The notes beneath the pieces are model-generated. The model worked only from the letters and a program-made list of their open reading frames with translations. It was not told where the DNA came from and did not search any database. DNA of 64,000 nucleotides, taken from Escherichia phage AV108. Position numbers and translations under genes: made by a program. Below, in pieces: positions 9,844 to 53,748 of the stretch. The stretch is taken from sequence record OR352938.1; one strand, 5' to 3'. Position 1 is the first letter of the stretch; every line of letters starts with the position of its first letter.

Positions 9844-9878
9844 GGGAGTATCTTACTACTCCCTTAATCCGGTGTCAA
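9844..9878 (-). promoter_or_regulatory. sigma70-type early promoter with stem-loop over the -10 (PeSL-like)
   Basis: Leftward TTGACA-N17-TAAGAT; inverted repeat gggagta/tactccc flanks the -10. Confidence 0.6.
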
Positions 9879-22675: not shown

Positions 22676-22989
22676 TATCCTAAAATCCTCACCTTGCGAA
22701 CACAGATAGTATTGAGTTCTCGCCGTACCCGTTCTTTTTCATATTCAGGAATTTTATATTCGATACCATCCCGAACAATTTCAGAAGACCGGATTATGCC
22801 AAATTTTCGTTTAGGTACAACCTTGTATTTCGGTTCACCCGCCAATAGACTCTCACAATAATCTATCTGATCACACATTGACGCTAACGCAGCATCATGT
22901 GTTTCGCAAGTTAGGACGCGACCTTTCGCGTCCACTGAGTATTGAAAGAATCCGTCTTTATCACGATAACATACAGCAAATACATGCAT
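22675..22989 (-). CDS. hypothetical protein (dda.1 position)
   Basis: 104-aa ORF translationally coupled to dda. Confidence 0.4.
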   Translation of the reverse strand: MHVFAVCYRDKDGFFQYSVDAKGRVLTCETHDAALASMCDQIDYCESLLAGEPKYKVVPKRKFGIIRSSEIVRDGIEYKIPEYEKERVRRELNTICVRKVRILG

Positions 22990-23744
22990 TATAAACCTAC
23001 CTTCGCTTTCATCAATTCAATCCACGACGCATCAATCGGAAGCCCGTATTTCACGCGTTCTTTTTGTGCTGGCGTTAAGTTCTCATACTTAGAAAGAGAT
23101 TCAATCAAAACGCTGGTATATTTTAGCACGATTTCGGTATTGTTTGCAATAGCCTTAAGTTTTTCTTCTTTCTTGTTGATTTCGCTAAGGGCTTGCTTGA
23201 GATCTGCAATTTTCTGATAACGTTCTTCCATACGGAAGAGAGTATTTTTAATCGCTCGCTCGGCTGCCTCTGCTTTCTCCGGTTCGTTGTGTTTTTTATG
23301 GCGCTCGATTGCTAATTTCTTTTCTTCGATTGCCATTTCCTGATTTTTGATGCGATTCTCGTTAAGTTCGATCCACTCGATGTACTTCGCACGTAGGGCA
23401 ATTTCATCATCAGAAAGTTTACCTTTAGTTCCCAGTTCCTGGATCTCTTTAAGAGATTCGATAGTGTGATTGCCACGGAAAGAATTATATTTCAGTTTAA
23501 CCGGAATTACATTGCCATCAACATATCCCAGATTGCAATCAATGCGCTCTAAGGAGAGTCCGTCATCACCTTCACCAAACGCTTCACCTGAATATGCGCA
23601 ATGAGTCTGACGGTAAATGTTACGCACAGTGACTAAGCTCATAGAGAAGTCTTTGTTGCGACGTGAAGCGCCAGCCATGATAGAGTTCAGACGGAAAACA
23701 ACCAGCGCCAATTCTTCGTTAGATTTAAAAGCAAACAGTTTCAT
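22989..23744 (-). CDS. Srd-like protein
   Basis: 251 aa, coiled-coil-rich C-terminal half; size and position match T4 srd; by synteny only. Confidence 0.45.
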   Translation of the reverse strand: MKLFAFKSNEELALVVFRLNSIMAGASRRNKDFSMSLVTVRNIYRQTHCAYSGEAFGEGDDGLSLERIDCNLGYVDGNVIPVKLKYNSFRGNHTIESLKEIQELGTKGKLSDDEIALRAKYIEWIELNENRIKNQEMAIEEKKLAIERHKKHNEPEKAEAAERAIKNTLFRMEERYQKIADLKQALSEINKKEEKLKAIANNTEIVLKYTSVLIESLSKYENLTPAQKERVKYGLPIDASWIELMKAKVGL

Positions 23745-27458: not shown

Positions 27459-28094
27459 TCAAGCGAATGTAGAAAGCAAATGTTTTGTTTCTTTCAGTTG
27501 TCGTTCAAGATCTTTGCGTTTCTCTTTAAGTTGCATTTTAGCATTATTTCGCTGTTTTTCAACATCTTTATCAATGCTCTTATTCCAGTTATCAATATCA
27601 GAATAAGTTGGCATACCCAATTCTAGACCTAATGCGGTTGGATACAGGGTAACAGTCCATAAACCGCTAATCTTCTTAAATAGGTCTGGGTGTAGTGTAC
27701 TATCTACATCTTCCGGTGTCAACTCTTTTTCTTCTTTCAGTGGTGGGATCTCGTCATATGGTTCCAGTGCATTTACTTTAATATCAGATACCTCATCAAA
27801 GAATCCGCGTACATCCGCAGGAAATACACAAGCAATTTCCCAACCGTGATCACGCAGAGAAGTAATATTTTTCACTCCCCCACCATGTGTGATGATTGAT
27901 GTGACATTGCCATCAAGGTCCACCGAATTTACGAGAAATGGCTTATCGTCTGTCAGATCATTATAAAACTGTGCTTCGGCTGTAGTCATCTCCAGAAACA
28001 GATCTCGGATCGGACGACCATCAGGTGCGTTACCTTCCTTGAGAGTATAAAAGCGACTTACGATCCATTTTGGCGGTAAAGCATTAGCGATCAT
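27459..28094 (-). CDS. hypothetical protein
   Basis: 211-aa ORF between genes 41 and 61; charged coiled-coil C-terminus. Confidence 0.45.
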   Translation of the reverse strand: MIANALPPKWIVSRFYTLKEGNAPDGRPIRDLFLEMTTAEAQFYNDLTDDKPFLVNSVDLDGNVTSIITHGGGVKNITSLRDHGWEIACVFPADVRGFFDEVSDIKVNALEPYDEIPPLKEEKELTPEDVDSTLHPDLFKKISGLWTVTLYPTALGLELGMPTYSDIDNWNKSIDKDVEKQRNNAKMQLKEKRKDLERQLKETKHLLSTFA

Positions 28095-44947: not shown

Positions 44948-45206
44948 AAATCGCCCTCAGTTCTTTATAGCCTCCAATGTGCTCGTTGTCAATGAATATC
45001 TGGGGGTATACAAACCGGAGGCTCTTTGAGTTCAGCCTCCCCGCCAGTTCTTCAATCATATCACGGTCGGGAATAATGTCAACCCCGACCTGCTTGAATA
45101 CTGGTTTAAGTGTATACGGAATACCCAGATCATCCAGTAGCTTCATTGCACTAATACAACCATAACAATGATAAGCCTCTTTCGGTATGCCGTATATCTC
45201 GATCAT
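44937..45206 (-). CDS. glutaredoxin-like protein (NrdH/NrdC family)
   Basis: CYGC active site; YPQIFIDNEHIGGY glutaredoxin signature. Confidence 0.7.
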   Translation of the reverse strand: MIEIYGIPKEAYHCYGCISAMKLLDDLGIPYTLKPVFKQVGVDIIPDRDMIEELAGRLNSKSLRFVYPQIFIDNEHIGGYKELRAIYDY

Positions 45207-45703
45207 TTCTCAGCCTTTAATCTTTCTAGTTCTTCTTCCAGTTCCTTGATCCGTTGGTCACGTTCAAAGTCACGCTGCAACTTAGTGGCAAATACTCGTT
45301 TAAACTGTTTGTAATCATCGATTTTAAACACTTCTTCTTCGCCATAGCGACGCACAGAAACTTCGTAGTTATTGAAGAATTGTTGCATCATTGCTTCGGA
45401 TGATAGTTCTGCTGATACCACTTTAAAATATTGATCTTCGGTCGGTGAAAACCAATTACAAGCATAAAGATAAACCTTTTCATTGTCTGGACACTGGTAA
45501 GCCTTACCATCGATTTCAATCACAGAAACATATTCAGGTATAGTCGATGAATCAATAGCTAAGACTTTAAACTGACGGTCCCCGATAAACTCGGAGATCA
45601 CACGATTCGCATCACTGGTTGCAAAGGCTTTACGCGCTTGTTCGCTTTTCCACTGATAGGTCATACCAACAACAAACATATTACCAACCTCGCTCTTTAC
45701 CAA
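45203..45703 (-). CDS. paralogous-family protein A
   Basis: Shares TYxWK...PFxV...IEIDG...WF...FFxEV core and charged C-terminal helix with family members. Confidence 0.5.
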   Translation of the reverse strand: MVKSEVGNMFVVGMTYQWKSEQARKAFATSDANRVISEFIGDRQFKVLAIDSSTIPEYVSVIEIDGKAYQCPDNEKVYLYACNWFSPTEDQYFKVVSAELSSEAMMQQFFNNYEVSVRRYGEEEVFKIDDYKQFKRVFATKLQRDFERDQRIKELEEELERLKAEK

Positions 45704-46214
45704 TCAAAAATTCAACTTCACGACGTTTAATATCTTCTTGAAGGTCTTTAATCTTCTGTCGATCTTGCATGATTTCATCCATCTTGTCAAGTGCTGCAAT
45801 GAAATCATCGAAACGTTCAAAGGTTTTACCTTCATTTGCTTCGCTAAATTTAACCATAGTCAGACCGTAACGACTACTAAACAGACGTTTCAACTGTCCA
45901 ACGATCTTAGAATCAGTGGTTATAACTTCCAATTCTTCTACTTCTTGAAAGAATTTTCTATCAGAATCAATAAACCAGCTAGTTCCTTTATGGTTGCTAT
46001 CTTCGGTTGCACTCATTAGAGTATGGTCTTTACCATCAATTTCAATTACATCAATTTGCCCACATGGACTAACCTTTTTAACAGTAAAAGGTCTATAATT
46101 TATTGCTCGTGCAATAACATAATTAAGGTTAGATACGTTTTCAGCATAATGGCAGAAGTCGGTCATAGCATTCGCATCTTTCCAGGTGTAAGTTTTACCA
46201 ATTTCCCATTTCAT
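45681..46214 (-). CDS. paralogous-family protein B
   Basis: MKWEIGKTYTWK...PFTVKKVSPCGQIDVIEIDGKDH; tandem family member. Confidence 0.5.
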   Translation of the reverse strand: MKWEIGKTYTWKDANAMTDFCHYAENVSNLNYVIARAINYRPFTVKKVSPCGQIDVIEIDGKDHTLMSATEDSNHKGTSWFIDSDRKFFQEVEELEVITTDSKIVGQLKRLFSSRYGLTMVKFSEANEGKTFERFDDFIAALDKMDEIMQDRQKIKDLQEDIKRREVEFLIGKERGW

Positions 46215-46226
46215 AATATATTCCCC

Positions 46227-46706
46227 TTAACCGATTTTATCAAGTTCGTTTAATGCTTTCTCTGCTTCCTGTATAGCTTGCACCCTTTCCGGCATTTTGT
46301 CAAGAAAATCTTTCAACTCTTCAAAACTGGAGATATGACGCAAGGCGTTAGCACCGATAGCCGCATGTGATTTGCATTCAAAGCGGATTTTATAATTATC
46401 CATCGCCAACTTGAGAAGATCAATTAATTTAGATTCTTCTGGAATAATAATTTCTTCAAATCTGCTACGGTCATGATCCAGAAACCAACAAGATAGACCT
46501 ACATCGGTTGAACTCATATAAGTTCCATCATGAAGATAAACAGACCGCACGTATCCTTTTTTCGCATCAACCGACGCAACTTTAAACGGTAATCGCAGAT
46601 ATTTCAAATAATCAACATCATACCATTTAAAAAATTGGTTTGCATCTTTTACATCTTTCCACGCATAGGTCTTACCAGCTTCCCATTTCATAATATCATC
46701 TCTCAT
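46227..46706 (-). CDS. paralogous-family protein C
   Basis: MKWEAGKTYAWK...PFKVASVD; tandem family member. Confidence 0.5.
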   Translation of the reverse strand: MRDDIMKWEAGKTYAWKDVKDANQFFKWYDVDYLKYLRLPFKVASVDAKKGYVRSVYLHDGTYMSSTDVGLSCWFLDHDRSRFEEIIIPEESKLIDLLKLAMDNYKIRFECKSHAAIGANALRHISSFEELKDFLDKMPERVQAIQEAEKALNELDKIG

Positions 46707-47232
46707 TTTTGATACGTGATTCTAATTGGATCATACGGTCGCGCGTTTGTTTGTATTCTCGGATAGCACCGATCCGGCTAGGCATACCATCCAGTACGCT
46801 CTTAATACCTTCTAGGGTAGTAATTTTGGCAATGCTATTATGTAACCCCATCTTATCGATCAACTGAATGTCGTAGGCTTCCATAAGCAGACCCAAGCGT
46901 TCTAAAGTTAGGTCTTCTTCTTTTTCTTCCGAATCTGGAATCTTAGGTTCAATAGTAACTTCGGTAAAGAAACGACGCTCACCCGACCAAAACCACACGC
47001 CGGAACAACCAATAGGGGATTCTTTTAACGTCATAGAGTCGAAATTACTACCAATAATAGTAATTTCTCTAACATCACCATCATCGTCAAGGTCTTCTAC
47101 CCTAAACGGGCGACCAGCCAACAGGTCAACAATACATCTGTTAATAGACGACGAAAATTTAGTCAGTTCGGCTTTCGACGCTTCACATTCAATCTTGTAA
47201 GTTTTACCAACTTCCCATTCCATAATAATCAC
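46696..47232 (-). CDS. paralogous-family protein D
   Basis: MEWEVGKTYKIE...PFRVEDLDDDGDVREITIIG; tandem family member. Confidence 0.5.
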   Translation of the reverse strand: MIIMEWEVGKTYKIECEASKAELTKFSSSINRCIVDLLAGRPFRVEDLDDDGDVREITIIGSNFDSMTLKESPIGCSGVWFWSGERRFFTEVTIEPKIPDSEEKEEDLTLERLGLLMEAYDIQLIDKMGLHNSIAKITTLEGIKSVLDGMPSRIGAIREYKQTRDRMIQLESRIKNER

Positions 47233-47233
47233 C

Positions 47234-47743
47234 TCAAATAATTTTCACTGGAATACTATTAACAATCTTGTATTGTACTTGATTGTCAGACCCCCGCCAC
47301 GGCTTCTTCGTTGGCATATCTTTAATATAACGCCCATCGATGAACATGTCAACTGATTCTACAATTTTTCTTTGCTCATCATTCAATTGGTCAAGGGTAT
47401 AACCAGACCATAGCCAAATATCTTTATTTGGCATCCATGATTTTACTTCATCGATGATCCGCTGTACACCCTTTAAATTGCGTTTATACAGTGGATCACC
47501 ACCTAAGAATGTTAGCCCCTGAATAAAATCAGGTCTAAGCAGATCCAGAATCAATCCCATTGTATCATCGGTGAATGGTTCCCCGTTCTTAGGATTGAGT
47601 ATACTGGAATTAAAGCAACCATCACATGCGTGTGAACATCCGGTAACGTAAAGGGAGACTCTCACTCCCTCACCGTTAACCATATCACAATCTTTAATAT
47701 CGGCATAGCGTAGTTTGCCGTATGTATCAGAACTCATATTCAA
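47234..47743 (-). CDS. nrdG: anaerobic ribonucleotide reductase activating protein (radical SAM)
   Basis: CxxxCxxC-type cluster GCSHACDGC near the N-terminus; size and position as T4 NrdG. Confidence 0.9.
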   Translation of the reverse strand: MNMSSDTYGKLRYADIKDCDMVNGEGVRVSLYVTGCSHACDGCFNSSILNPKNGEPFTDDTMGLILDLLRPDFIQGLTFLGGDPLYKRNLKGVQRIIDEVKSWMPNKDIWLWSGYTLDQLNDEQRKIVESVDMFIDGRYIKDMPTKKPWRGSDNQVQYKIVNSIPVKII

Positions 47744-47879
47744 TTACCCCGAACTCGTTTACAATCTGCGCTTTATAGTAACCACCGCGAGATGCTAATA
47801 GATAAGCTGGGCTTAGGTATTCGTATTCACGGATTTCTACTTGTGCGTTTTCAGTTTCCCAAATCAGTAAAGTCCACAT
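47727..47879 (-). CDS. hypothetical small protein
   Basis: About 50 aa from MWTLLIWETENAQ with AGGAG RBS; track ORF starts inside the promoter. Confidence 0.3.
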   Translation of the reverse strand: MWTLLIWETENAQVEIREYEYLSPAYLLASRGGYYKAQIVNEFGVIEYEF

Positions 47880-47921
47880 ATTTGATTCTCCTGTAAAGTT
47901 GTATCTCGTCTTGATGAATAT

Positions 47922-47950
47922 AGTATAGGGGATCTCGCGATCCCCGTCAA
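47922..47950 (-). promoter_or_regulatory. sigma70-type promoter with hairpin filling the spacer, two GATC sites
   Basis: TTGACG-(gggatcgcgagatcccc)-TATACT. Confidence 0.5.
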
Positions 47951-47954
47951 GCAT

Positions 47955-48503
47955 TTATTTTAAATTTTTTCGAATGTAGTCAGACCATTCCTTCCCTGTC
48001 AGTTCGGTCCCATTCTGGAAACTGAAATATTCATACGGCATCGAGTCAAGATAAAACAGGATCATACATCGCGCCATATAATACCAATCACGATTAAAGT
48101 AAACTACGTTATCACCAGTACCATCAACCCCTTTATCATAACCATCGCGGGTACGGGCAACCCATTGAATAGTATCATTTTTCTCACGGATAGTAACAGG
48201 TTCCCAATATCCAGCACATCCAGCATGACCACACGAACAAGTAAGGAAATATTGTCCTTTTGCTTTGTTGTCATCCCATTCACGATGGATCGGTTTGATT
48301 TCGTGAAACATTGCCAAACAATCATGATTATGCAACACCGGCTTACCATCAATCAATGCATGGAATGTATACAAACGACCCGTAGACAAATAGCTATCCT
48401 CACGCTCAACCAGTTCAATAGCAATCTTTTTAGCTCGTTCTTTGTGTCGTTGTGCTTTACGCTTACGGTTTAATGATTTCATATTCACCTCACACATTAT
48501 CAA
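47955..48503 (-). CDS. hypothetical protein (cysteine cluster)
   Basis: 182-aa ORF; CSCGHAGCAGYW cluster. Confidence 0.45.
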   Translation of the reverse strand: MIMCEVNMKSLNRKRKAQRHKERAKKIAIELVEREDSYLSTGRLYTFHALIDGKPVLHNHDCLAMFHEIKPIHREWDDNKAKGQYFLTCSCGHAGCAGYWEPVTIREKNDTIQWVARTRDGYDKGVDGTGDNVVYFNRDWYYMARCMILFYLDSMPYEYFSFQNGTELTGKEWSDYIRKNLK

Positions 48504-49039
48504 AGGTCGCGATATAGTACATTATGAAAATGAGAACTTGCATTACCAATATTGTAGATAATAAATTCTTCATCCGGCGCTTGCGCTACAAATTGAGTAT
48601 GAGCAACCGCCACAACCTTAAAAATACGATCCGTGATCTTGTGTTTAATTTCTGCCCCTACTTCCATAGGAACATATTCATTTGTTTCTGTTTCAGTCGC
48701 AAAACAGCCATCTTCTTCATAAGCACGAACAAATCTGTCGCAATCAGTACGCTTAACAAATTCAAGAGTATATAATTCTCGTGAATTGTCGGTATAGACC
48801 AATACAGAATTATTATGATAGCGAATCACATACAGGTTATTATCATCGTCAATTACGCAAAAGCTACGGATTCCTTCGCCTTGACTCCAGCAGATATTAA
48901 CCACCGTTCCTCTAATAAAAAAACTTTCCTTTAAATTAAAACTAGTCAATGTGCTAGCGTGCATTTTAACAACAACACCATCGCCAATTTCCAGTTTACG
49001 AATTTTAACTTCTTTGCTCAGTACACAAAACATCATCAT
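48500..49039 (-). CDS. hypothetical protein
   Basis: 179-aa ORF. Confidence 0.45.
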   Translation of the reverse strand: MMMFCVLSKEVKIRKLEIGDGVVVKMHASTLTSFNLKESFFIRGTVVNICWSQGEGIRSFCVIDDDNNLYVIRYHNNSVLVYTDNSRELYTLEFVKRTDCDRFVRAYEEDGCFATETETNEYVPMEVGAEIKHKITDRIFKVVAVAHTQFVAQAPDEEFIIYNIGNASSHFHNVLYRDL

Positions 49040-49068
49040 GTTGTCCTCTCGTTGTTTTCGATGTGAGC

Positions 49069-49096
49069 ATTATACATTAGCTAATCATGTTGTCAA
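49069..49096 (-). promoter_or_regulatory. sigma70-type early promoter
   Basis: TTGACA-N16-TATAAT immediately downstream of the nrdD terminator. Confidence 0.55.
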
Positions 49097-49102
49097 CACC
49101 CC

Positions 49103-49139
49103 AAAACGAAAAAGCCGACCCTTTCGGATCGGCTAAAAA
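49103..49139 (-). terminator. intrinsic terminator after nrdD
   Basis: agccgacc-cttt-cggatcggct hairpin flanked by A/T runs. Confidence 0.6.
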
Positions 49140-51002
49140 TTACATGTGCTTAACGCGGTTTACCATCTCGGAGTGTTTCCCGTGGTTAAATGGACGCAGA
49201 TCAACAGATCCAAGATATCCACTAACGCGACGGATAACATTCATCTTTTCCAGATTGTCGTTGCCGCAATCAGGACAAACAAAACCAGACTCGGTCGCTC
49301 TCATTTCCTTATTAGACCCGCATACATGACATACATCAGAAGGAGTATTAACACCGAAGTAGTGCAATTTATCCATTGCATAGTCTACTACAGTTTCAAG
49401 ACCTTTCAGGTTGTTTTTCATGTCTGGGAACTCAACATAAGAGATCATGCCACCGGACGCCAGCCAGTGATAATCTTTCTCAAAGTCAATTTTCTCAAAC
49501 GGTGTAACCTTCCGGTCTACGTCAAGGTGGAATGAGTTGGTGTACCAGTCTTTATCGGTAGCACCCTTAACAATACCAAATTGCTCTCTGTCCAGTCGAT
49601 TAAATCGATAGCAAAGGCTCTCGGCTGGCGTACCGTAAAGACTAAACCCAAGTCCGGTTTCGTCCTTCCATTTTTCAGTATAATGACGCAAGATCTTAAG
49701 AATATGTTTACCGTATCGCTGCGCATCTTCCGAATCAAACGGATGAACATCAAACAGGACGCTCAATACCTCATGTAAACCAATATATCCAAGAGAGATA
49801 CTAGCGCGACCATCTTTCAACACTTCCAAAATTTCATCGTTTTGATGAATACGGAAAAATGCACCTTCGGTATATAGTACAGGAGCAACATTGGCTTTAG
49901 CGCCTTTTAAAGCGTCTACGCGACTCATGAGCGCATCAAAACAAATAGGCATACGATTAGCTAGCTCTTGTTCGAATAGCTCAATTCTGCGCATTACAGA
50001 CGCTTTACCAGCACGACGCGCGGCAATAAGAGCAATACGCGGAAGATTCAGAGTCACAACACCCAAGTTATTACGTCCGTCTAATACTTCTTCGCCTTTC
50101 TCATTATGCCATACACCCAGGAAGCTACGACAACCCATCGGGCTAACCGGAACACTAGATCCAGTGATGCTACGGTTATTCTTCGCAGAGATATAATCAG
50201 GGTAAAGACGCTTACTAGAACATTCCAATGCAAGTTGCTTAATGTCGTAGTTCGGATCTTCCGGTTTAAGGTTTAATCCTTCTTCTAAGAACATCACCAG
50301 CTTAGGAAACACCGGAGTTATACCGTCTTTACCTAAACCTTTAGTTCGAACTTTCAGGATCGCTTTCTGAATCAGTTTTTCTTCCCAGCTAGTACCCATA
50401 CCAAAGGTTAAAGTCACAAAAGGCGTTTGACCGTTGGTGGAGAACAAAGTGTTGATTTCATATTCCAACGCTTGATACCCGTCTAGCGTTTCTTTTTCTG
50501 TCTTCTCTTGTGCATAGAGAGTATCAGCTTTGATTCCGTAGGTTTCGGCATCAGCAAGGTGTTTATGATATGTTTTCTCAACGTATGGCGCTAAAACCTG
50601 ATCGATGTTTGCAATTGTGGTCCCGCCATATTGATGACTTGCCACCTGTGCGATAATTTGAGCGGTTACAGCACAAGCAACGCCGATCGATTTCGGACTT
50701 TCGATTTGTGCGCTACCCAATTTAAAACCATTCTCTAACATGTCTTTGAGATTAACAAGACAGCAGTTAGTAAACGGCATAGCGGGTGCATAATCCATAT
50801 CATGATAATGAATATCACCGTCTACATGCGCTTTATAGATGTGCTCAGGTAACACGGTTTTAGCAATCTGTTTAGACACAGCGCCAGCAATCAGATCTCG
50901 ACGTGTCGGGAATGTTCGCGCGTCTTTGTTCGCGTTCTCTTTACTTACTTCGTTTTCTTTACCCGTTGCGATCTCTGTAATGTCTTTGATTAGTTTTTCC
51001 AT
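49140..51002 (-). CDS. nrdD: anaerobic ribonucleoside-triphosphate reductase
   Basis: 620 aa; C-terminal glycyl-radical motif RVSGYLG; zinc-ribbon cysteines CHVCG...CPDCG. Confidence 0.95.
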   Translation of the reverse strand: MEKLIKDITEIATGKENEVSKENANKDARTFPTRRDLIAGAVSKQIAKTVLPEHIYKAHVDGDIHYHDMDYAPAMPFTNCCLVNLKDMLENGFKLGSAQIESPKSIGVACAVTAQIIAQVASHQYGGTTIANIDQVLAPYVEKTYHKHLADAETYGIKADTLYAQEKTEKETLDGYQALEYEINTLFSTNGQTPFVTLTFGMGTSWEEKLIQKAILKVRTKGLGKDGITPVFPKLVMFLEEGLNLKPEDPNYDIKQLALECSSKRLYPDYISAKNNRSITGSSVPVSPMGCRSFLGVWHNEKGEEVLDGRNNLGVVTLNLPRIALIAARRAGKASVMRRIELFEQELANRMPICFDALMSRVDALKGAKANVAPVLYTEGAFFRIHQNDEILEVLKDGRASISLGYIGLHEVLSVLFDVHPFDSEDAQRYGKHILKILRHYTEKWKDETGLGFSLYGTPAESLCYRFNRLDREQFGIVKGATDKDWYTNSFHLDVDRKVTPFEKIDFEKDYHWLASGGMISYVEFPDMKNNLKGLETVVDYAMDKLHYFGVNTPSDVCHVCGSNKEMRATESGFVCPDCGNDNLEKMNVIRRVSGYLGSVDLRPFNHGKHSEMVNRVKHM

Positions 51003-51015
51003 TGTATCACCTATG

Positions 51016-51037
51016 AAAAAGCGGGATTTTCTCCCGC
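51016..51037 (-). terminator. intrinsic terminator
   Basis: gcggga-tttc-tcccgc hairpin followed by TTTTT on the leftward strand. Confidence 0.5.
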
Positions 51038-51048
51038 TCGTTGATAGT

Positions 51049-51543
51049 TTATTTTACCAGTTCTGCTAATTCTTTTTCTTTAGCTTCTAGTTCAGCTTTA
51101 AGCTGTTTAATCTCTTGTCGCTTCTTATTAGCGGCTTCTTGCTTACTATTTCGGATAACCTGATCTAGATACAACTCCCAATCCTGAATATTTTTGATAA
51201 TGTATCCGTCAACATTAATTGGTCGGAGATTCAGTACAGCTTCCAGTTTAGTCGCAAAAACTTTAATTGCTGGTGTGAAGTATTCATATTCGTTATCTTC
51301 AAACCAATAACCTAGACTTGCATTATCAATACGAAGACGAAGTTCAAGATCAAGGTCTTTATCTTCGGTGTAAAGATCTTTCACCTGACCCAGCGAACTA
51401 ACAACAACTTTAAAACGAATTTTATCTACACCACCAAACACATCAGTAAGTATATCAGCAATTGAGCTATTAGCGCAAGATTGGTCGCTGAATGCGTCAA
51501 GGTTTTCTTTAGTTACAGTATACCAAACATCTTGTACCCACAT
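51049..51543 (-). CDS. paralogous-family protein H
   Basis: WYTVTKENLDAF...IRFKVVVSS...WFEDNEYEYF with coiled-coil C-terminus; family member. Confidence 0.45.
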   Translation of the reverse strand: MWVQDVWYTVTKENLDAFSDQSCANSSIADILTDVFGGVDKIRFKVVVSSLGQVKDLYTEDKDLDLELRLRIDNASLGYWFEDNEYEYFTPAIKVFATKLEAVLNLRPINVDGYIIKNIQDWELYLDQVIRNSKQEAANKKRQEIKQLKAELEAKEKELAELVK

Positions 51544-51573
51544 AATATAATCCTCTCGTTGTTAAGTGGGAGT

Positions 51574-51601
51574 ATTATAGCATACTCCCTTCGCATGTCA
51601 A
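51574..51601 (-). promoter_or_regulatory. sigma70-type early promoter with stem-loop (PeSL-like)
   Basis: TTGACA-N16-TATAAT; hairpin gggagta...tactccc over the -10. Confidence 0.55.
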
Positions 51602-52776
51602 GCACTAACTTTTTTCTTTACTGCTTTCACCTTCTGGCGAATTGCTCGAATCTCTTCGATCTCTTTTTCAGTATCTTTAACAATTTCTTTGCGATTCTGA
51701 ATATCTTTATCGAGATTATCATCAAGTTTAGGCAGCATGTCAATCAAGAACTTTTTAAGGTCTTTCAGGTTGCGAATAACAGTACCTTCACCCATTACCG
51801 CCACGCCTACACCATCCGGCAGATCACCAAACAGTTTAACCAGTTCAGACAGATGATCATGATCTTCTAGTGCTTCTTCCGGTTCAGATGGCAGTTCAAC
51901 AAAGTAATAACGTTCATCATTGCTGATCAGGTGATACCAGCAAAGCCCAAAAGATTTAGGAGTATATTCTACACCACCAACTTCAACTGCGTCAACACTT
52001 CCGAAAGAATCTACTTTAGTTACCTTAAATCCATGTTCCAGCGTTTTAATAATTTCAATAACATGACTGGATACGGTTTCAGTATTAAACCAATGAGGCA
52101 AATTATGTGGATTTGGCTTGTATCGTTCGCCTACTTTAAATCTCTGACCACGCTCTTGCATACGGACATATTCAACTCGCGTGATTTCCGCGAAGTATTC
52201 AAATTCGCTACCGTCAAACAAGCAATTCCATTGATCACAAAAACGATCCGCCTTGACGGTTTCACCTTTCGCGGTGATCATGGTAGCTGATCCGTGCAAT
52301 TCTTCTTCAACTAAAAAGCCATATTCGACAAAATCAACAAGTTTCATGGCTTCTTTGTGCTCTGGGTCATGCTCTCCCCAGAATCGCTTAAATTCTTGCA
52401 AACCTTCTGGGGTAAACGAATAACATTTACCTTTTTCAAAGTAAGTCGGCATTGCATCCTCTTTCTTGTTCATCGCTTCGTATGCCTCTTTTGAGATACG
52501 TTTAAAGTATTTGCGCTCATTGTGCATAATCATAGTAGACCAATAATAAACGATATCCTCAGCGGAATAAACTACATCTCCAGCTTCAATAGTAATAACA
52601 TGACCGTGGTCATCTTTTTCTAATACTTTAAAGCCCTTTTCTACGATTTCAGCAACCCGAATATGACCACGGCGCGAAGCATCGGTCAGAATAATTGAAT
52701 AGCGAGAAAAGTCTAGAAACTCATCTTTACCGCCTTCACGGAATGCATAGTAATGACCTTCAAAGAATTTAGCCAT
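51598..52776 (-). CDS. paralogous-family protein E (three tandem domain copies)
   Basis: 392 aa; repeated GFKVLEK..., GFLVEEE..., GFKVTKVDSFGSVDAVEVGG modules; ERKYFKRIS shared with F. Confidence 0.5.
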   Translation of the reverse strand: MAKFFEGHYYAFREGGKDEFLDFSRYSIILTDASRRGHIRVAEIVEKGFKVLEKDDHGHVITIEAGDVVYSAEDIVYYWSTMIMHNERKYFKRISKEAYEAMNKKEDAMPTYFEKGKCYSFTPEGLQEFKRFWGEHDPEHKEAMKLVDFVEYGFLVEEELHGSATMITAKGETVKADRFCDQWNCLFDGSEFEYFAEITRVEYVRMQERGQRFKVGERYKPNPHNLPHWFNTETVSSHVIEIIKTLEHGFKVTKVDSFGSVDAVEVGGVEYTPKSFGLCWYHLISNDERYYFVELPSEPEEALEDHDHLSELVKLFGDLPDGVGVAVMGEGTVIRNLKDLKKFLIDMLPKLDDNLDKDIQNRKEIVKDTEKEIEEIRAIRQKVKAVKKKVSA

Positions 52777-52808
52777 AATATAATCCTCTCGTTGTTTAGA
52801 TGGGAGTA

Positions 52809-52837
52809 TCTTACTACTCCCGTTTCATCATGTCAAG
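52809..52837 (-). promoter_or_regulatory. sigma70-type early promoter with stem-loop (PeSL-like)
   Basis: TTGACA-N17-TAAGAT; hairpin gggagta-tcttac-tactccc identical in type to 9844-9863. Confidence 0.55.
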
Positions 52838-53417
52838 CGTTAAATGACTTTTGGATCTCTTTCAGTTCAGCTACTTTATCGGCGCTGAATTTAGCGTAGG
52901 TATCATGTCGAATAATTTCACTTTCAAGAAAGGTTTCCAGCCGAGATCTATTTTCAATAAGGAACTCTTTCAGGTCTTCCGCGTTCTTGATAAAGATTTT
53001 ATTGTCAGTAATGTCATCTTCAATCGCAAAGGAGATAGAGCGAACTTTACCAAACAAGTTAATCAGATCTTCCAGAGATTCTTCTTTCTTAACTGGTTTC
53101 ATTTCTTCAAACTGCTTTTTAGTGATGCGTTTAAAGTATTTGCGCTCGCTTGCATCAATCATGATTGATGCACCCTCATAATCATGAGTTTCTACCAAAT
53201 ACACTTTACCCATAACATTAACCGTAAGAACTTTAAAGCCCCTGTGAAGCACACCATACAGGAACTTGTTATGTTGTGGGTAGCGTTTAACAAATTCCTC
53301 TGCGGACTTAGCATTACGGAAAGTGTAATAACGACCTCGTTCAAAAACAGCATCATTTGAAGACTTAGCCGGATACAATTTATACGTTTTCTGTACCATA
53401 ATATAATCCTCTATCAT
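52833..53417 (-). CDS. paralogous-family protein F
   Basis: RYYTFRNAKSAEEF...GFKVLTVNVMGKVYLVE...ERKYFKRITK. Confidence 0.5.
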   Translation of the reverse strand: MIEDYIMVQKTYKLYPAKSSNDAVFERGRYYTFRNAKSAEEFVKRYPQHNKFLYGVLHRGFKVLTVNVMGKVYLVETHDYEGASIMIDASERKYFKRITKKQFEEMKPVKKEESLEDLINLFGKVRSISFAIEDDITDNKIFIKNAEDLKEFLIENRSRLETFLESEIIRHDTYAKFSADKVAELKEIQKSFNA

Positions 53418-53425
53418 TTCACTAA

Positions 53426-53686
53426 TTAAACAGCACGGAACAGAATGCGCTCACACGGAAGCAGCATAAATTCCCAACGCGGGTCAAAGTCTTTAGCGGT
53501 GTATGTTTTCCCATCAACCGCTATTTCACTTACATAACCAACAGGTGACACTTTAAGAACAGTAAACCCGTTCTTGATGACTTCGTAGGTATCTTTCACC
53601 CCTTCGTATTCATCATCTAAGAAGTCTTTATGTGCTTGCTCAGATTTAAAAACATAGGCCACACCGGATTTAAACATCTTACGCAT
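53426..53686 (-). CDS. paralogous-family protein G (single short domain)
   Basis: VAYVFKSEQAHKDF...GFTVLKVSPVGYVSEIAVDGKTY closely parallels member A. Confidence 0.45.
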   Translation of the reverse strand: MRKMFKSGVAYVFKSEQAHKDFLDDEYEGVKDTYEVIKNGFTVLKVSPVGYVSEIAVDGKTYTAKDFDPRWEFMLLPCERILFRAV

Positions 53687-53717
53687 TGTTGATTCTCCTT
53701 CTTGATTAGATGGGAAT

Positions 53718-53748
53718 ATTTTACTACTCCCATTTCATGTTTGTCAAC
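53718..53748 (-). promoter_or_regulatory. sigma70-type early promoter with stem-loop
   Basis: TTGACA-N18-TAAAAT; hairpin gggaata...tactccc. Confidence 0.45.

Follow-up and report, generated by a model that had tools for sequence, protein, structure and literature searches.

A local expansion of the GoF/Frd.2 phage barrel family around nrdG and nrdD in the Krischvirus AV108

In the 64,000-nucleotide (nt) stretch of Escherichia phage AV108 analysed here (OR352938.1; called the window in the following), eight open reading frames (ORFs) that flank the anaerobic ribonucleotide reductase genes nrdG and nrdD (region 45203-53686) form one paralogous family, and this family is a local expansion of a known but functionally unsolved phage family. 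We are highly confident that the module shared by the eight proteins belongs to the barrel family of the T4 proteins GoF and Frd.2, and equally so about the mechanism by which the set evolves. In the following, the ORFs of the region are referred to as A to H, and a ninth member elsewhere in the window by its RB49 name, Dc2. The window is part of the genome of a Krischvirus, an RB49-like, T4-like coliphage: at the DNA level, 55 sequenced Krischvirus genomes, among them RB49, phi1, JSE and kaaroe, show 96-98% identity with the region, and the gene order matches that of RB49, with all genes on the minus strand (55 - ... - nrdH - four ORFs - nrdG - three ORFs - nrdD - four ORFs - gene 49 - nrdC - dam).

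An earlier note on this DNA had listed the eight ORFs as paralogues. All of them exist and were confirmed on the minus strand, and every family gene sits on the early strand. However, judged by the Shine-Dalgarno pattern (GAGG, about 9 nt, ATG) together with the RB49 RefSeq gene models, the listed starts of A, C, D and G were too far upstream, and the true starts lie 9-24 nt inside these ORFs (45679, 46691, 47223 and 53399, respectively). With the corrected starts, the module opens at residue 1-2 (MKWE.GKTY) and the head-to-tail array of four members, D-C-B-A, is packed directly behind nrdG with gaps of 1-12 nt, while G begins 26 nt after H.

That the eight proteins are related is supported by several independent comparisons. 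All-versus-all BLASTP connects them with E-values between 1e-13 and 1e-4 (for example B-C 9e-13, C-D 1e-12, F-G 1e-8 and A-H 1e-6), so that the lack of significant pairwise similarity, which the earlier note had named as a ground for abandoning the family, is not what is seen; E has the weakest link to the other members. A jackhmmer search seeded with B and run against all 383 window ORFs of at least 40 amino acids (aa) recovered the eight ORFs and Dc2 with profile E-values of 1e-18 to 1e-92; the sole further match was a composition-biased one to the homologue of Srd, treated below. Three separate module matches fall in F (aa 3-115, 113-205 and 212-374) and one in every other member, and therefore the region holds 10 modules and the window, including Dc2, 11, in agreement with the minimum of ten copies and the three tandem copies in the 392-aa member that had been proposed. 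Applied to the whole RB49 genome, the same profile finds the same nine genes and none else, with 12 modules, because B of RB49 has two barrels. The best PHROGs families are phrog_5347 for A to D, phrog_15067 for E, phrog_8944 ("goF mRNA metabolism modulator") for F and G, phrog_16115 for H and phrog_16187 for Dc2, with many cross-matches between them. The conserved columns Y9, F20, F43, G52 and F89 (numbering of protein B) correspond to the motifs quoted in the earlier note. The probability that these motifs merely reflect chance or composition is negligible: although the modules are just 15-38% identical to each other and the BLAST links of E are weak, the profile E-values are far too low and no unrelated ORF was recruited, the independent PHROG profiles agree and the predicted folds are congruent, so that BLASTP, PHROG profiles, jackhmmer and the RB49 genome scan together rule this reading out.

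Beyond the window, when 1.84 billion representative proteins were searched with a profile, only 92 clusters emerged at E<=1e-3, mostly of 140-210 aa and several with two or three modules. A protein of 797 aa with eight repeats from this search (P0156) looks like a repeat protein of the Cna-B/SpaA type and was deemed a false positive. By tblastn, the F gene is found only in the 58 Krischvirus records, and in all 58 of them; its three-barrel architecture of 391-392 aa is constant in the eight full-length protein clusters retrieved. Neither a Pfam scan of the eight proteins (E<=1) nor a sequence search of the PDB with the family profile gave a meaningful match. We also considered the homologue of Srd (22989-23744, minus strand), a T4 protein that activates RNase E. 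It matches the C-terminal helix of the family weakly (E 0.002-0.014), and the link was rejected because the score is mostly composition bias in the charged helix (7.2 of 10 bits).

The kinship to the T4 proteins emerges from profile comparisons. A profile built from window sequences only matches T4 GoF with an E-value of 1.2e-11 and Frd.2 with one of 6.7e-4, and the alignment with GoF spans all conserved motifs (KWY.FK, PFK(I/V)L, G... and W(F/L)...E..FF.EV). Both T4 proteins are found in phrog_622 (E 5e-38 and 4e-46), which every one of the eight proteins but E matches as well (E-values 4e-20 to 1.6e-3), and protein E is tied to the family via phrog_3710, which GoF matches at 8e-12. This fits with existing labels, as two genes of the set, among them the orthologue of G, are named "goF mRNA metabolism modulator" in RefSeq and the 392-aa gene was called frd.2 by the RB49 annotators in 2003. 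GoF and Frd.2, together with MotB.1, were defined in 2025 as an "LSm-like" family from the three single-barrel proteins of T4, a name that rests on a small bent five-strand antiparallel sheet (Kim et al. 2025; PMC12152347). The earlier statement that no function can be assigned from sequence was therefore too strong, since the module belongs to this published family and carries goF labels in RefSeq.

On the structural level, we are confident in a model in which the module forms a five-strand SH3-like barrel of the FeoA type with two helices inserted after strand 1. An AlphaFold2 model of B, built on a family alignment of 29 sequences, places strands at residues 8-11, 43-48, 54-59, 62-64 and 89-92 with both helices between strands 1 and 2, and within the barrel (aa 1-90) the block averages of the predicted local distance difference test (pLDDT) exceed 90, except for the loop 21-30 (71). 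For F, AlphaFold2 gives three barrels with the same pattern of strands and helices and no confident packing between them (predicted template-modelling score 0.35). Thus, a shared module had been recognised correctly, but not its extent: instead of about 110 aa and a short charged helix, it comprises about 85-100 aa and is followed, in seven of the eight proteins (not in H) and in Dc2, by a conserved C-terminal domain of 65-90 aa, modelled as a helix, two short strands and a terminal helix of at least 40 aa (40-55 aa).

The nearest solved folds of the barrel are FeoA and the DtxR-type SH3 domain, and also Tudor, CarD and KOW. In a Foldseek search against the PDB nothing was found at E<=1e-3, with chains of FeoA, SloR and ScaR heading the list, and the FeoA profile (PF04023) matched none of the eight proteins in the Pfam scan. 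Since no Hfq or Sm structure is among the structural matches listed, we describe the fold as SH3-like and FeoA-type rather than as a member of the Sm/LSm fold. Against BFVD, Foldseek gave 76 viral proteins at E<=1e-3; all named entries among the 50 matches listed come from phages, nearly all of them T4-like, including a VR7 protein named GoF, and the hosts comprise Escherichia, Proteus, Edwardsiella, Aeromonas, Pectobacterium, Serratia, Morganella, Citrobacter and Klebsiella. One of the phages, phAPEC8, is presumably not T4-like.

Our data also allow insights into how the number of barrels changes. B, C and D share a 45-nt DNA repeat at their 5' ends, which spans the ribosome-binding site, the start codon and the first 13 codons and is a substrate for unequal recombination. 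Most of the module duplications are old, because the identity between modules is so low; between its two barrels, RB49 B shows 52% identity. At least 54 of 58 relatives have an nrdH-nrdG interval that exceeds that of AV108 by about 290-320 nt, consistent with a two-barrel B of 274-281 aa; in ELT4 and E26 the excess is only about 25-30 nt (single-barrel B), and the match in KFS-EC is shorter and aligned only in part. The junction in B of AV108 is a clean deletion of 291 nt between the nearly identical starts (about 38 nt) of barrels 1 and 2. This allele occurs in none of the 58 GenBank relatives and in one metagenomic contig from ENA (P0039). The reciprocal allele, which kept barrel 1 and lost barrel 2, is present in phage E26 and in several metagenomic contigs (P0057 and similar), and the interval in ELT4 is similarly short. 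In a Logan contig (L009, 5001-5938; SRR11185258), the array has collapsed, so that a single D::B chimera of 154 aa (P0068) replaces D, C and B; here A is split into ORFs of 64 aa and 105 aa by a frameshift or an assembly error. The deletion, reciprocal and chimera alleles therefore show that barrel number shifts by homologous recombination between repeats within coding sequences, apart from the exchange between early stem-loop promoters (PeSL) described below. Hence, gain and loss of modules in Krischvirus is ongoing and proceeds by recombination at conserved 5' repeats.

The family genes also change fast at the level of single residues. Compared with the divergent relative L010, proteins A to E are 65-71% identical (dN 0.18-0.25; ratio of nonsynonymous to synonymous substitution rates, dN/dS, 0.25-0.29), whereas the values for nrdD and nrdG are 97-98% (dN 0.007-0.017; dN/dS 0.037), which corresponds to an about 10-fold faster divergence and bears out the proposed local amplification and divergence in an early-strand region. 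The ranking is the same against RB49, where F and H are 91.6% and 90.7% identical and nrdD, nrdG and gene 49 reach 99-100%. Gene-wide positive selection was not seen in the comparison of A to E with L010, and a dN/dS of about 0.25 indicates relaxed purifying selection on a family that is fast-evolving yet clearly maintained. In the family genes dS is also higher, which suggests that recombination has replaced alleles.

Early transcription is expected from the promoters. A strict PeSL pattern (TTGACA, stem GGGAGTA, -10 box in loop or stem, TACTCCC) occurs four times in the 64 kb, compared with zero expected from shuffles, and three of these four sites lie immediately upstream of H, F and E, which are predicted to have promoters of the early type. 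What had been described as several members with their own stem-loop early promoters thus comes down to exactly these three family genes of the region. Since G and the A-D array have no PeSL of their own, they must be read through from H and nrdG, respectively. Both promoter and terminator activity of PeSLs, and recombination between them, were shown in phi1 and RB49 (Arbiol et al. 2010; PMC2839356).

Three further elements were observed. The fourth strict PeSL (TTGACA...GGGAGTA...ACTCCC) is located at 9844-9878 on the minus strand. Directly after nrdD (49069-49134, minus strand), a strong terminator-like hairpin with a 9-bp stem, six GC pairs and a T-run is followed within 20 nt by a predicted sigma-70 promoter that agrees with the consensus at 12 of 12 positions and would drive a 179-aa ORF (48500-49039), a terminator-promoter cassette whose layout is unlike that of the three PeSLs. 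Finally, the translation-initiation region AACGAGAGGATTATATTATG is a repeated DNA element (51541-51566, 52774-52799, 53397-53422 and 49034-49059), with 96% identity between E and F and 73% in G and in the 179-aa ORF after nrdD.

For the function of the set, the work on T4 GoF is the main guide. The abundant GoF protein is early and non-essential, with an estimated number of about 20,000 molecules in each cell; it runs both as a monomer and as a dimer, and MotB.1 likewise runs as a dimer (PMC12152347). Mutations in goF were selected as suppressors of restrictive rho alleles, and GoF(D25Y) lengthens the half-life of RNA with the gene 41 leader in a post-transcriptional and Hfq-independent manner (PMC12152347). 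By homology, we tentatively favour a reading, to which we give somewhat less than an even chance, in which the family members are early, probably dimeric adaptors whose barrels bind RNA or proteins of mRNA decay or termination and whose targets have diverged. The nine Krischvirus genes, probably early accessory genes of a dispensable type, are built from the N-terminal barrel of GoF/Frd.2 and in most cases extended by the C-terminal domain. Each barrel would serve as a binding module and the terminal helix would dimerise the protein, which we infer because the long helix fits such a role and because T4 GoF and MotB.1 run as dimers. The paralogues would differ in their binding target, most likely within host or phage mRNA metabolism. 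Regarding the ligand, the isoelectric points (pI) of the barrels point in two directions: nine of the 11 are acidic (4.1-5.9), that of C is neutral (7.8), and G is the sole member with a strongly basic barrel (pI 9.65, net charge +6). Direct RNA binding is thus plausible for the barrel of G, while for the acidic majority the binding of a protein of RNA processing, mRNA decay or termination appears more likely.

The positions of the GoF suppressor mutations fit into this picture. Both D25 and G84 fall on variable or hypervariable positions of the family, as seen in 101 modules. At the equivalent of D25, defined as the third residue after the conserved Phe in a MAFFT alignment, 20 modules have an aromatic, 18 a basic and 19 an acidic residue, and in the G84 column 31 modules have K or R, 21 have E and 11 have G. 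Protein B carries Y and K at the two sites, D carries F and R, and G carries R and K; therefore, the suppressor substitutions of GoF recreate states that are natural in other members. A bolder version holds that B, D and G are constitutively active counterparts of GoF D25Y/G84R, that the expanded set is an RNA-protecting or anti-decay battery with differing specificity for transcripts or partners and that a dimer of F makes up a six-barrel, Sm-ring-like assembly; we regard this version as quite unlikely.

Several observations weigh against the adaptor reading. In the RNA reporter assay, the wild-type forms of GoF and MotB.1 showed hardly any effect (PMC12152347), and no family member has a demonstrated wild-type function. 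The acidic barrels fit RNA binding poorly. The equivalence of D25 with the third residue after the Phe hinges on the placement of a gap, which the hidden Markov model (HMM) alignment sets one residue earlier. Dimerisation through the terminal helix is an inference from a part of the models with low confidence (pLDDT 49-76 for the C-terminal domain), and a profile of the C-terminal domain only did not detect T4 GoF or Frd.2.

Among the alternatives, the main rival, to which we give a chance only slightly below that of the adaptor reading of the function, is that the barrels are protein-binding adaptors or decoys in the style of SH3 or Tudor domains, which act in host takeover or anti-defence, so that each paralogue is directed at another host protein, RNA is not the direct ligand, and copy number and surface residues shift under host pressure. 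Such a role would suit the acidic character of most barrels, the classical protein-protein interaction domains among the nearest folds (FeoA, DtxR-SH3, Tudor, CarD, KOW), the missing RNA effect of wild-type GoF and the hypervariability of both suppressor positions over the 101 modules. It would also suit a set of early, non-core genes beside PeSL shuffling cassettes that evolve about 10 times faster than their neighbours and whose modules are gained, lost and recombined among close relatives. However, no partner is known, as GoF pull-downs yielded essentially GoF itself, and the architecture of F is stable across the Krischvirus relatives of F retrieved. The anti-defence part, which the earlier note had suggested, is without evidence so far: PADLOC-DB, a library of defence rather than anti-defence proteins, contains no family that matches any of the nine proteins at E<=0.01, no paper was found that ties the family to anti-defence, and a dN/dS of about 0.25 without gene-wide positive selection speaks against a gene-wide arms race.

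The original idea for GoF (ComC-alpha) was that KOW- or Tudor-like barrels bind Rho, partners of NusG or RNA polymerase and thereby modulate Rho-dependent termination. This would account directly for the selection of goF mutations as suppressors of restrictive rho alleles. Nevertheless, it has become improbable, since reporter assays and quantitative reverse-transcription PCR place the effect of GoF(D25Y) after transcription, with a longer RNA half-life, and since the unrelated RNA-binding protein Rop suppresses likewise (PMC12152347). Iron or metal handling in the manner of FeoA, finally, would fit the location by the genes of an iron-sulfur and glycyl-radical enzyme, and FeoA and the SH3 domain of the DtxR family are the top structural neighbours, albeit with weak similarity, of proteins whose genes flank nrdG and nrdD; it is very improbable all the same, because the metal-ligand histidines are absent according to the GoF paper (PMC12152347) and the T4 members do not lie beside nrd genes, with no family gene between nrdH and nrdG or between nrdD and 49. 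As these slots are empty in T4, the linkage to nrd genes reflects a lineage-specific insertion site and not a conserved operon.

Taken together, we consider the GoF/Frd.2 adaptor account, comprising identity, evolution and function, the best explanation of the set, with the chances for and against it as a whole evenly balanced.

Table 1. Family members, domains, repeats and promoters in the window (PeSL, early stem-loop promoter).
Feature	Position	Strand	Description
H	53426..53686	-	86 aa; bare barrel without C-terminal domain; phrog_16115; own PeSL promoter upstream
G	52833..53399	-	188 aa; ATG 53399 (previously listed 53417 too long); one barrel and C-terminal domain
F	51598..52776	-	392 aa; three tandem barrels and C-terminal domain; phrog_8944; RB49 "frd.2"; own PeSL promoter
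F barrel 1	52465..52776	-	aa 1-104
F barrel 2	52156..52452	-	aa 109-207
F barrel 3	51865..52155	-	aa 208-304
F C-terminal domain	51601..51864	-	aa 305-392; predicted helix, two short strands, 55-aa terminal helix
E	51049..51543	-	164 aa; barrel and C-terminal domain; phrog_15067; most divergent member; own PeSL promoter with 12/12 consensus
D	46696..47223	-	175 aa; phrog_5347; ATG 47223; opens the array right after nrdG
C	46227..46691	-	154 aa; ATG 46691; second gene of the array
B	45681..46214	-	177 aa; third gene of the array; single barrel in AV108
A	45203..45679	-	158 aa; ATG 45679; last gene of the array; stop overlaps nrdH start
Dc2 (RB49 name)	27459..28094	-	211 aa; ninth member, outside the region; phrog_16187; immediately downstream of helicase gene 41
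45-nt repeat, 5' end of B	46175..46219		spans ribosome-binding site, start codon and first 13 codons
45-nt repeat, 5' end of C	46652..46696		84% identical to B copy
45-nt repeat, 5' end of D	47184..47228		76% identical to B copy
PeSL upstream of H	53712..53747	-	predicted sigma-70 -35 box; stem-loop GGGAGTA...TATTCCC enclosing -10 box
PeSL upstream of F	52802..52836	-	pattern match
PeSL upstream of E	51568..51601	-	TTGACA-16-TATAAT with TG extension

As Table 1 indicates, Dc2 adjoins gene 41, whose mRNA is known to be affected by T4 GoF(D25Y), an adjacency of possible significance. Of the ORFs between nrdD and nrdG, those of 182 aa and 75 aa gave no jackhmmer match to the family, and the 179-aa ORF after nrdD has no kinship to it (hhalign probability 0.7%). 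The 182-aa ORF (47955-48503, minus strand) is only 49.5% identical in contig L009, where its neighbours reach 94-99%, which suggests that the allele has been replaced there.

In genetics, GoF has posed a puzzle from the 1970s-90s onwards, as it suppresses rho alleles without a wild-type phenotype. In this context, the nine genes of Krischvirus represent a natural series of variants, with acidic, neutral and basic barrels, one to three barrels per protein, suppressor-like residues and alleles with deletions and chimeras, and this series could serve to find the ligand and the wild-type function. Besides, the changes in barrel number represent an accordion-like mechanism that, in a T4-type phage, operates on protein domains. 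Neither the papers on RB49 and phi1 and on the comparison of five genomes, which do not mention the paralogy, nor the GoF paper (PMC12152347), which does not mention RB49, paralogues or tandem domains, cover these observations. Therefore, the expansion in Krischvirus (nine genes and, in RB49, 12 modules, compared with three genes in T4) into slots that are empty in T4 appears to be undescribed, and the same appears to apply to proteins with two or three barrels, the C-terminal domain that the proteins share, the way in which barrels are gained and lost by recombination and the observation on the suppressor positions. Our finding overturns nothing and extends a known, poorly understood accessory family.

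Compared with known systems, the closest relative is T4 GoF (ComC-alpha, 141 aa), which shares with the AV108 proteins the homologous N-terminal barrel and its predicted fold and is itself of early, accessory and acidic character; the structural neighbours of the AV108 barrels are those published for GoF (PMC12152347). In contrast to the AV108 proteins, GoF has no detectable counterpart of their longer, conserved C-terminal domain with its predicted helix of at least 40 aa, and a likeness of strands and helix in this domain to the T4 proteins, noticed by eye, was not supported by the profile. Moreover, GoF has one barrel, whereas Krischvirus also has versions with two and three, and in place of D25 and G84 of GoF some of the AV108 paralogues carry aromatic and basic residues. 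Frd.2 (128 aa) shares phrog_622 with GoF and has one barrel compared with three in F. Kim et al. 2025 assigned MotB.1 (119 aa) to this structural family as well (PMC12152347), but its match to our module is not significant in the HMM search (E 0.26) and covers the first 45 columns with a probability of 30% in hhalign (E 5.6e-4), and it belongs to a separate PHROG (2333). Outside the phage proteins, FeoA and the SH3-like C-terminal domain of the DtxR family (CATH 2.30.30.90) are the nearest structural neighbours, while the likeness to Hfq, Sm and LSm is limited to the small bent five-strand antiparallel sheet; Kim et al. obtained no confident AlphaFold3 multimers of GoF (PMC12152347).

The two lineages also differ in where the genes are placed. 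T4 holds its three members as single copies between 39 and cef (goF), between motB and motB.2 (motB.1) and between frd.1 and frd.3 (frd.2), and RB49 has no family gene at any of these sites. Hence F, despite its label, is not the positional orthologue of T4 Frd.2, as the stretch between frd and gene 32 of RB49 is free of family genes. Conversely, the Krischvirus slots between nrdH and nrdG and between nrdD and gene 49 hold insertions, whereas T4 has nrdH-55.8-nrdG and nrdD-49 as uninterrupted neighbours, among which the profile detects no family gene. From this comparison of sites, Krischvirus has three times the number of genes of T4 (nine and three) and, in RB49, four times the number of barrels, all at lineage-specific sites. 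The promoters upstream of H, F and E have the same parts as the PeSL cassettes of RB49 and phi1, that is an upstream stop codon, a predicted -35 box, a stem-loop over the -10 box, a Shine-Dalgarno sequence and a start codon. While exchange between PeSLs shuffles cassettes of whole ORFs, the gain and loss of modules in A to D instead proceeds via repeats within the coding sequence, and is thus distinct from the cassette shuffling described for RB49 and phi1.

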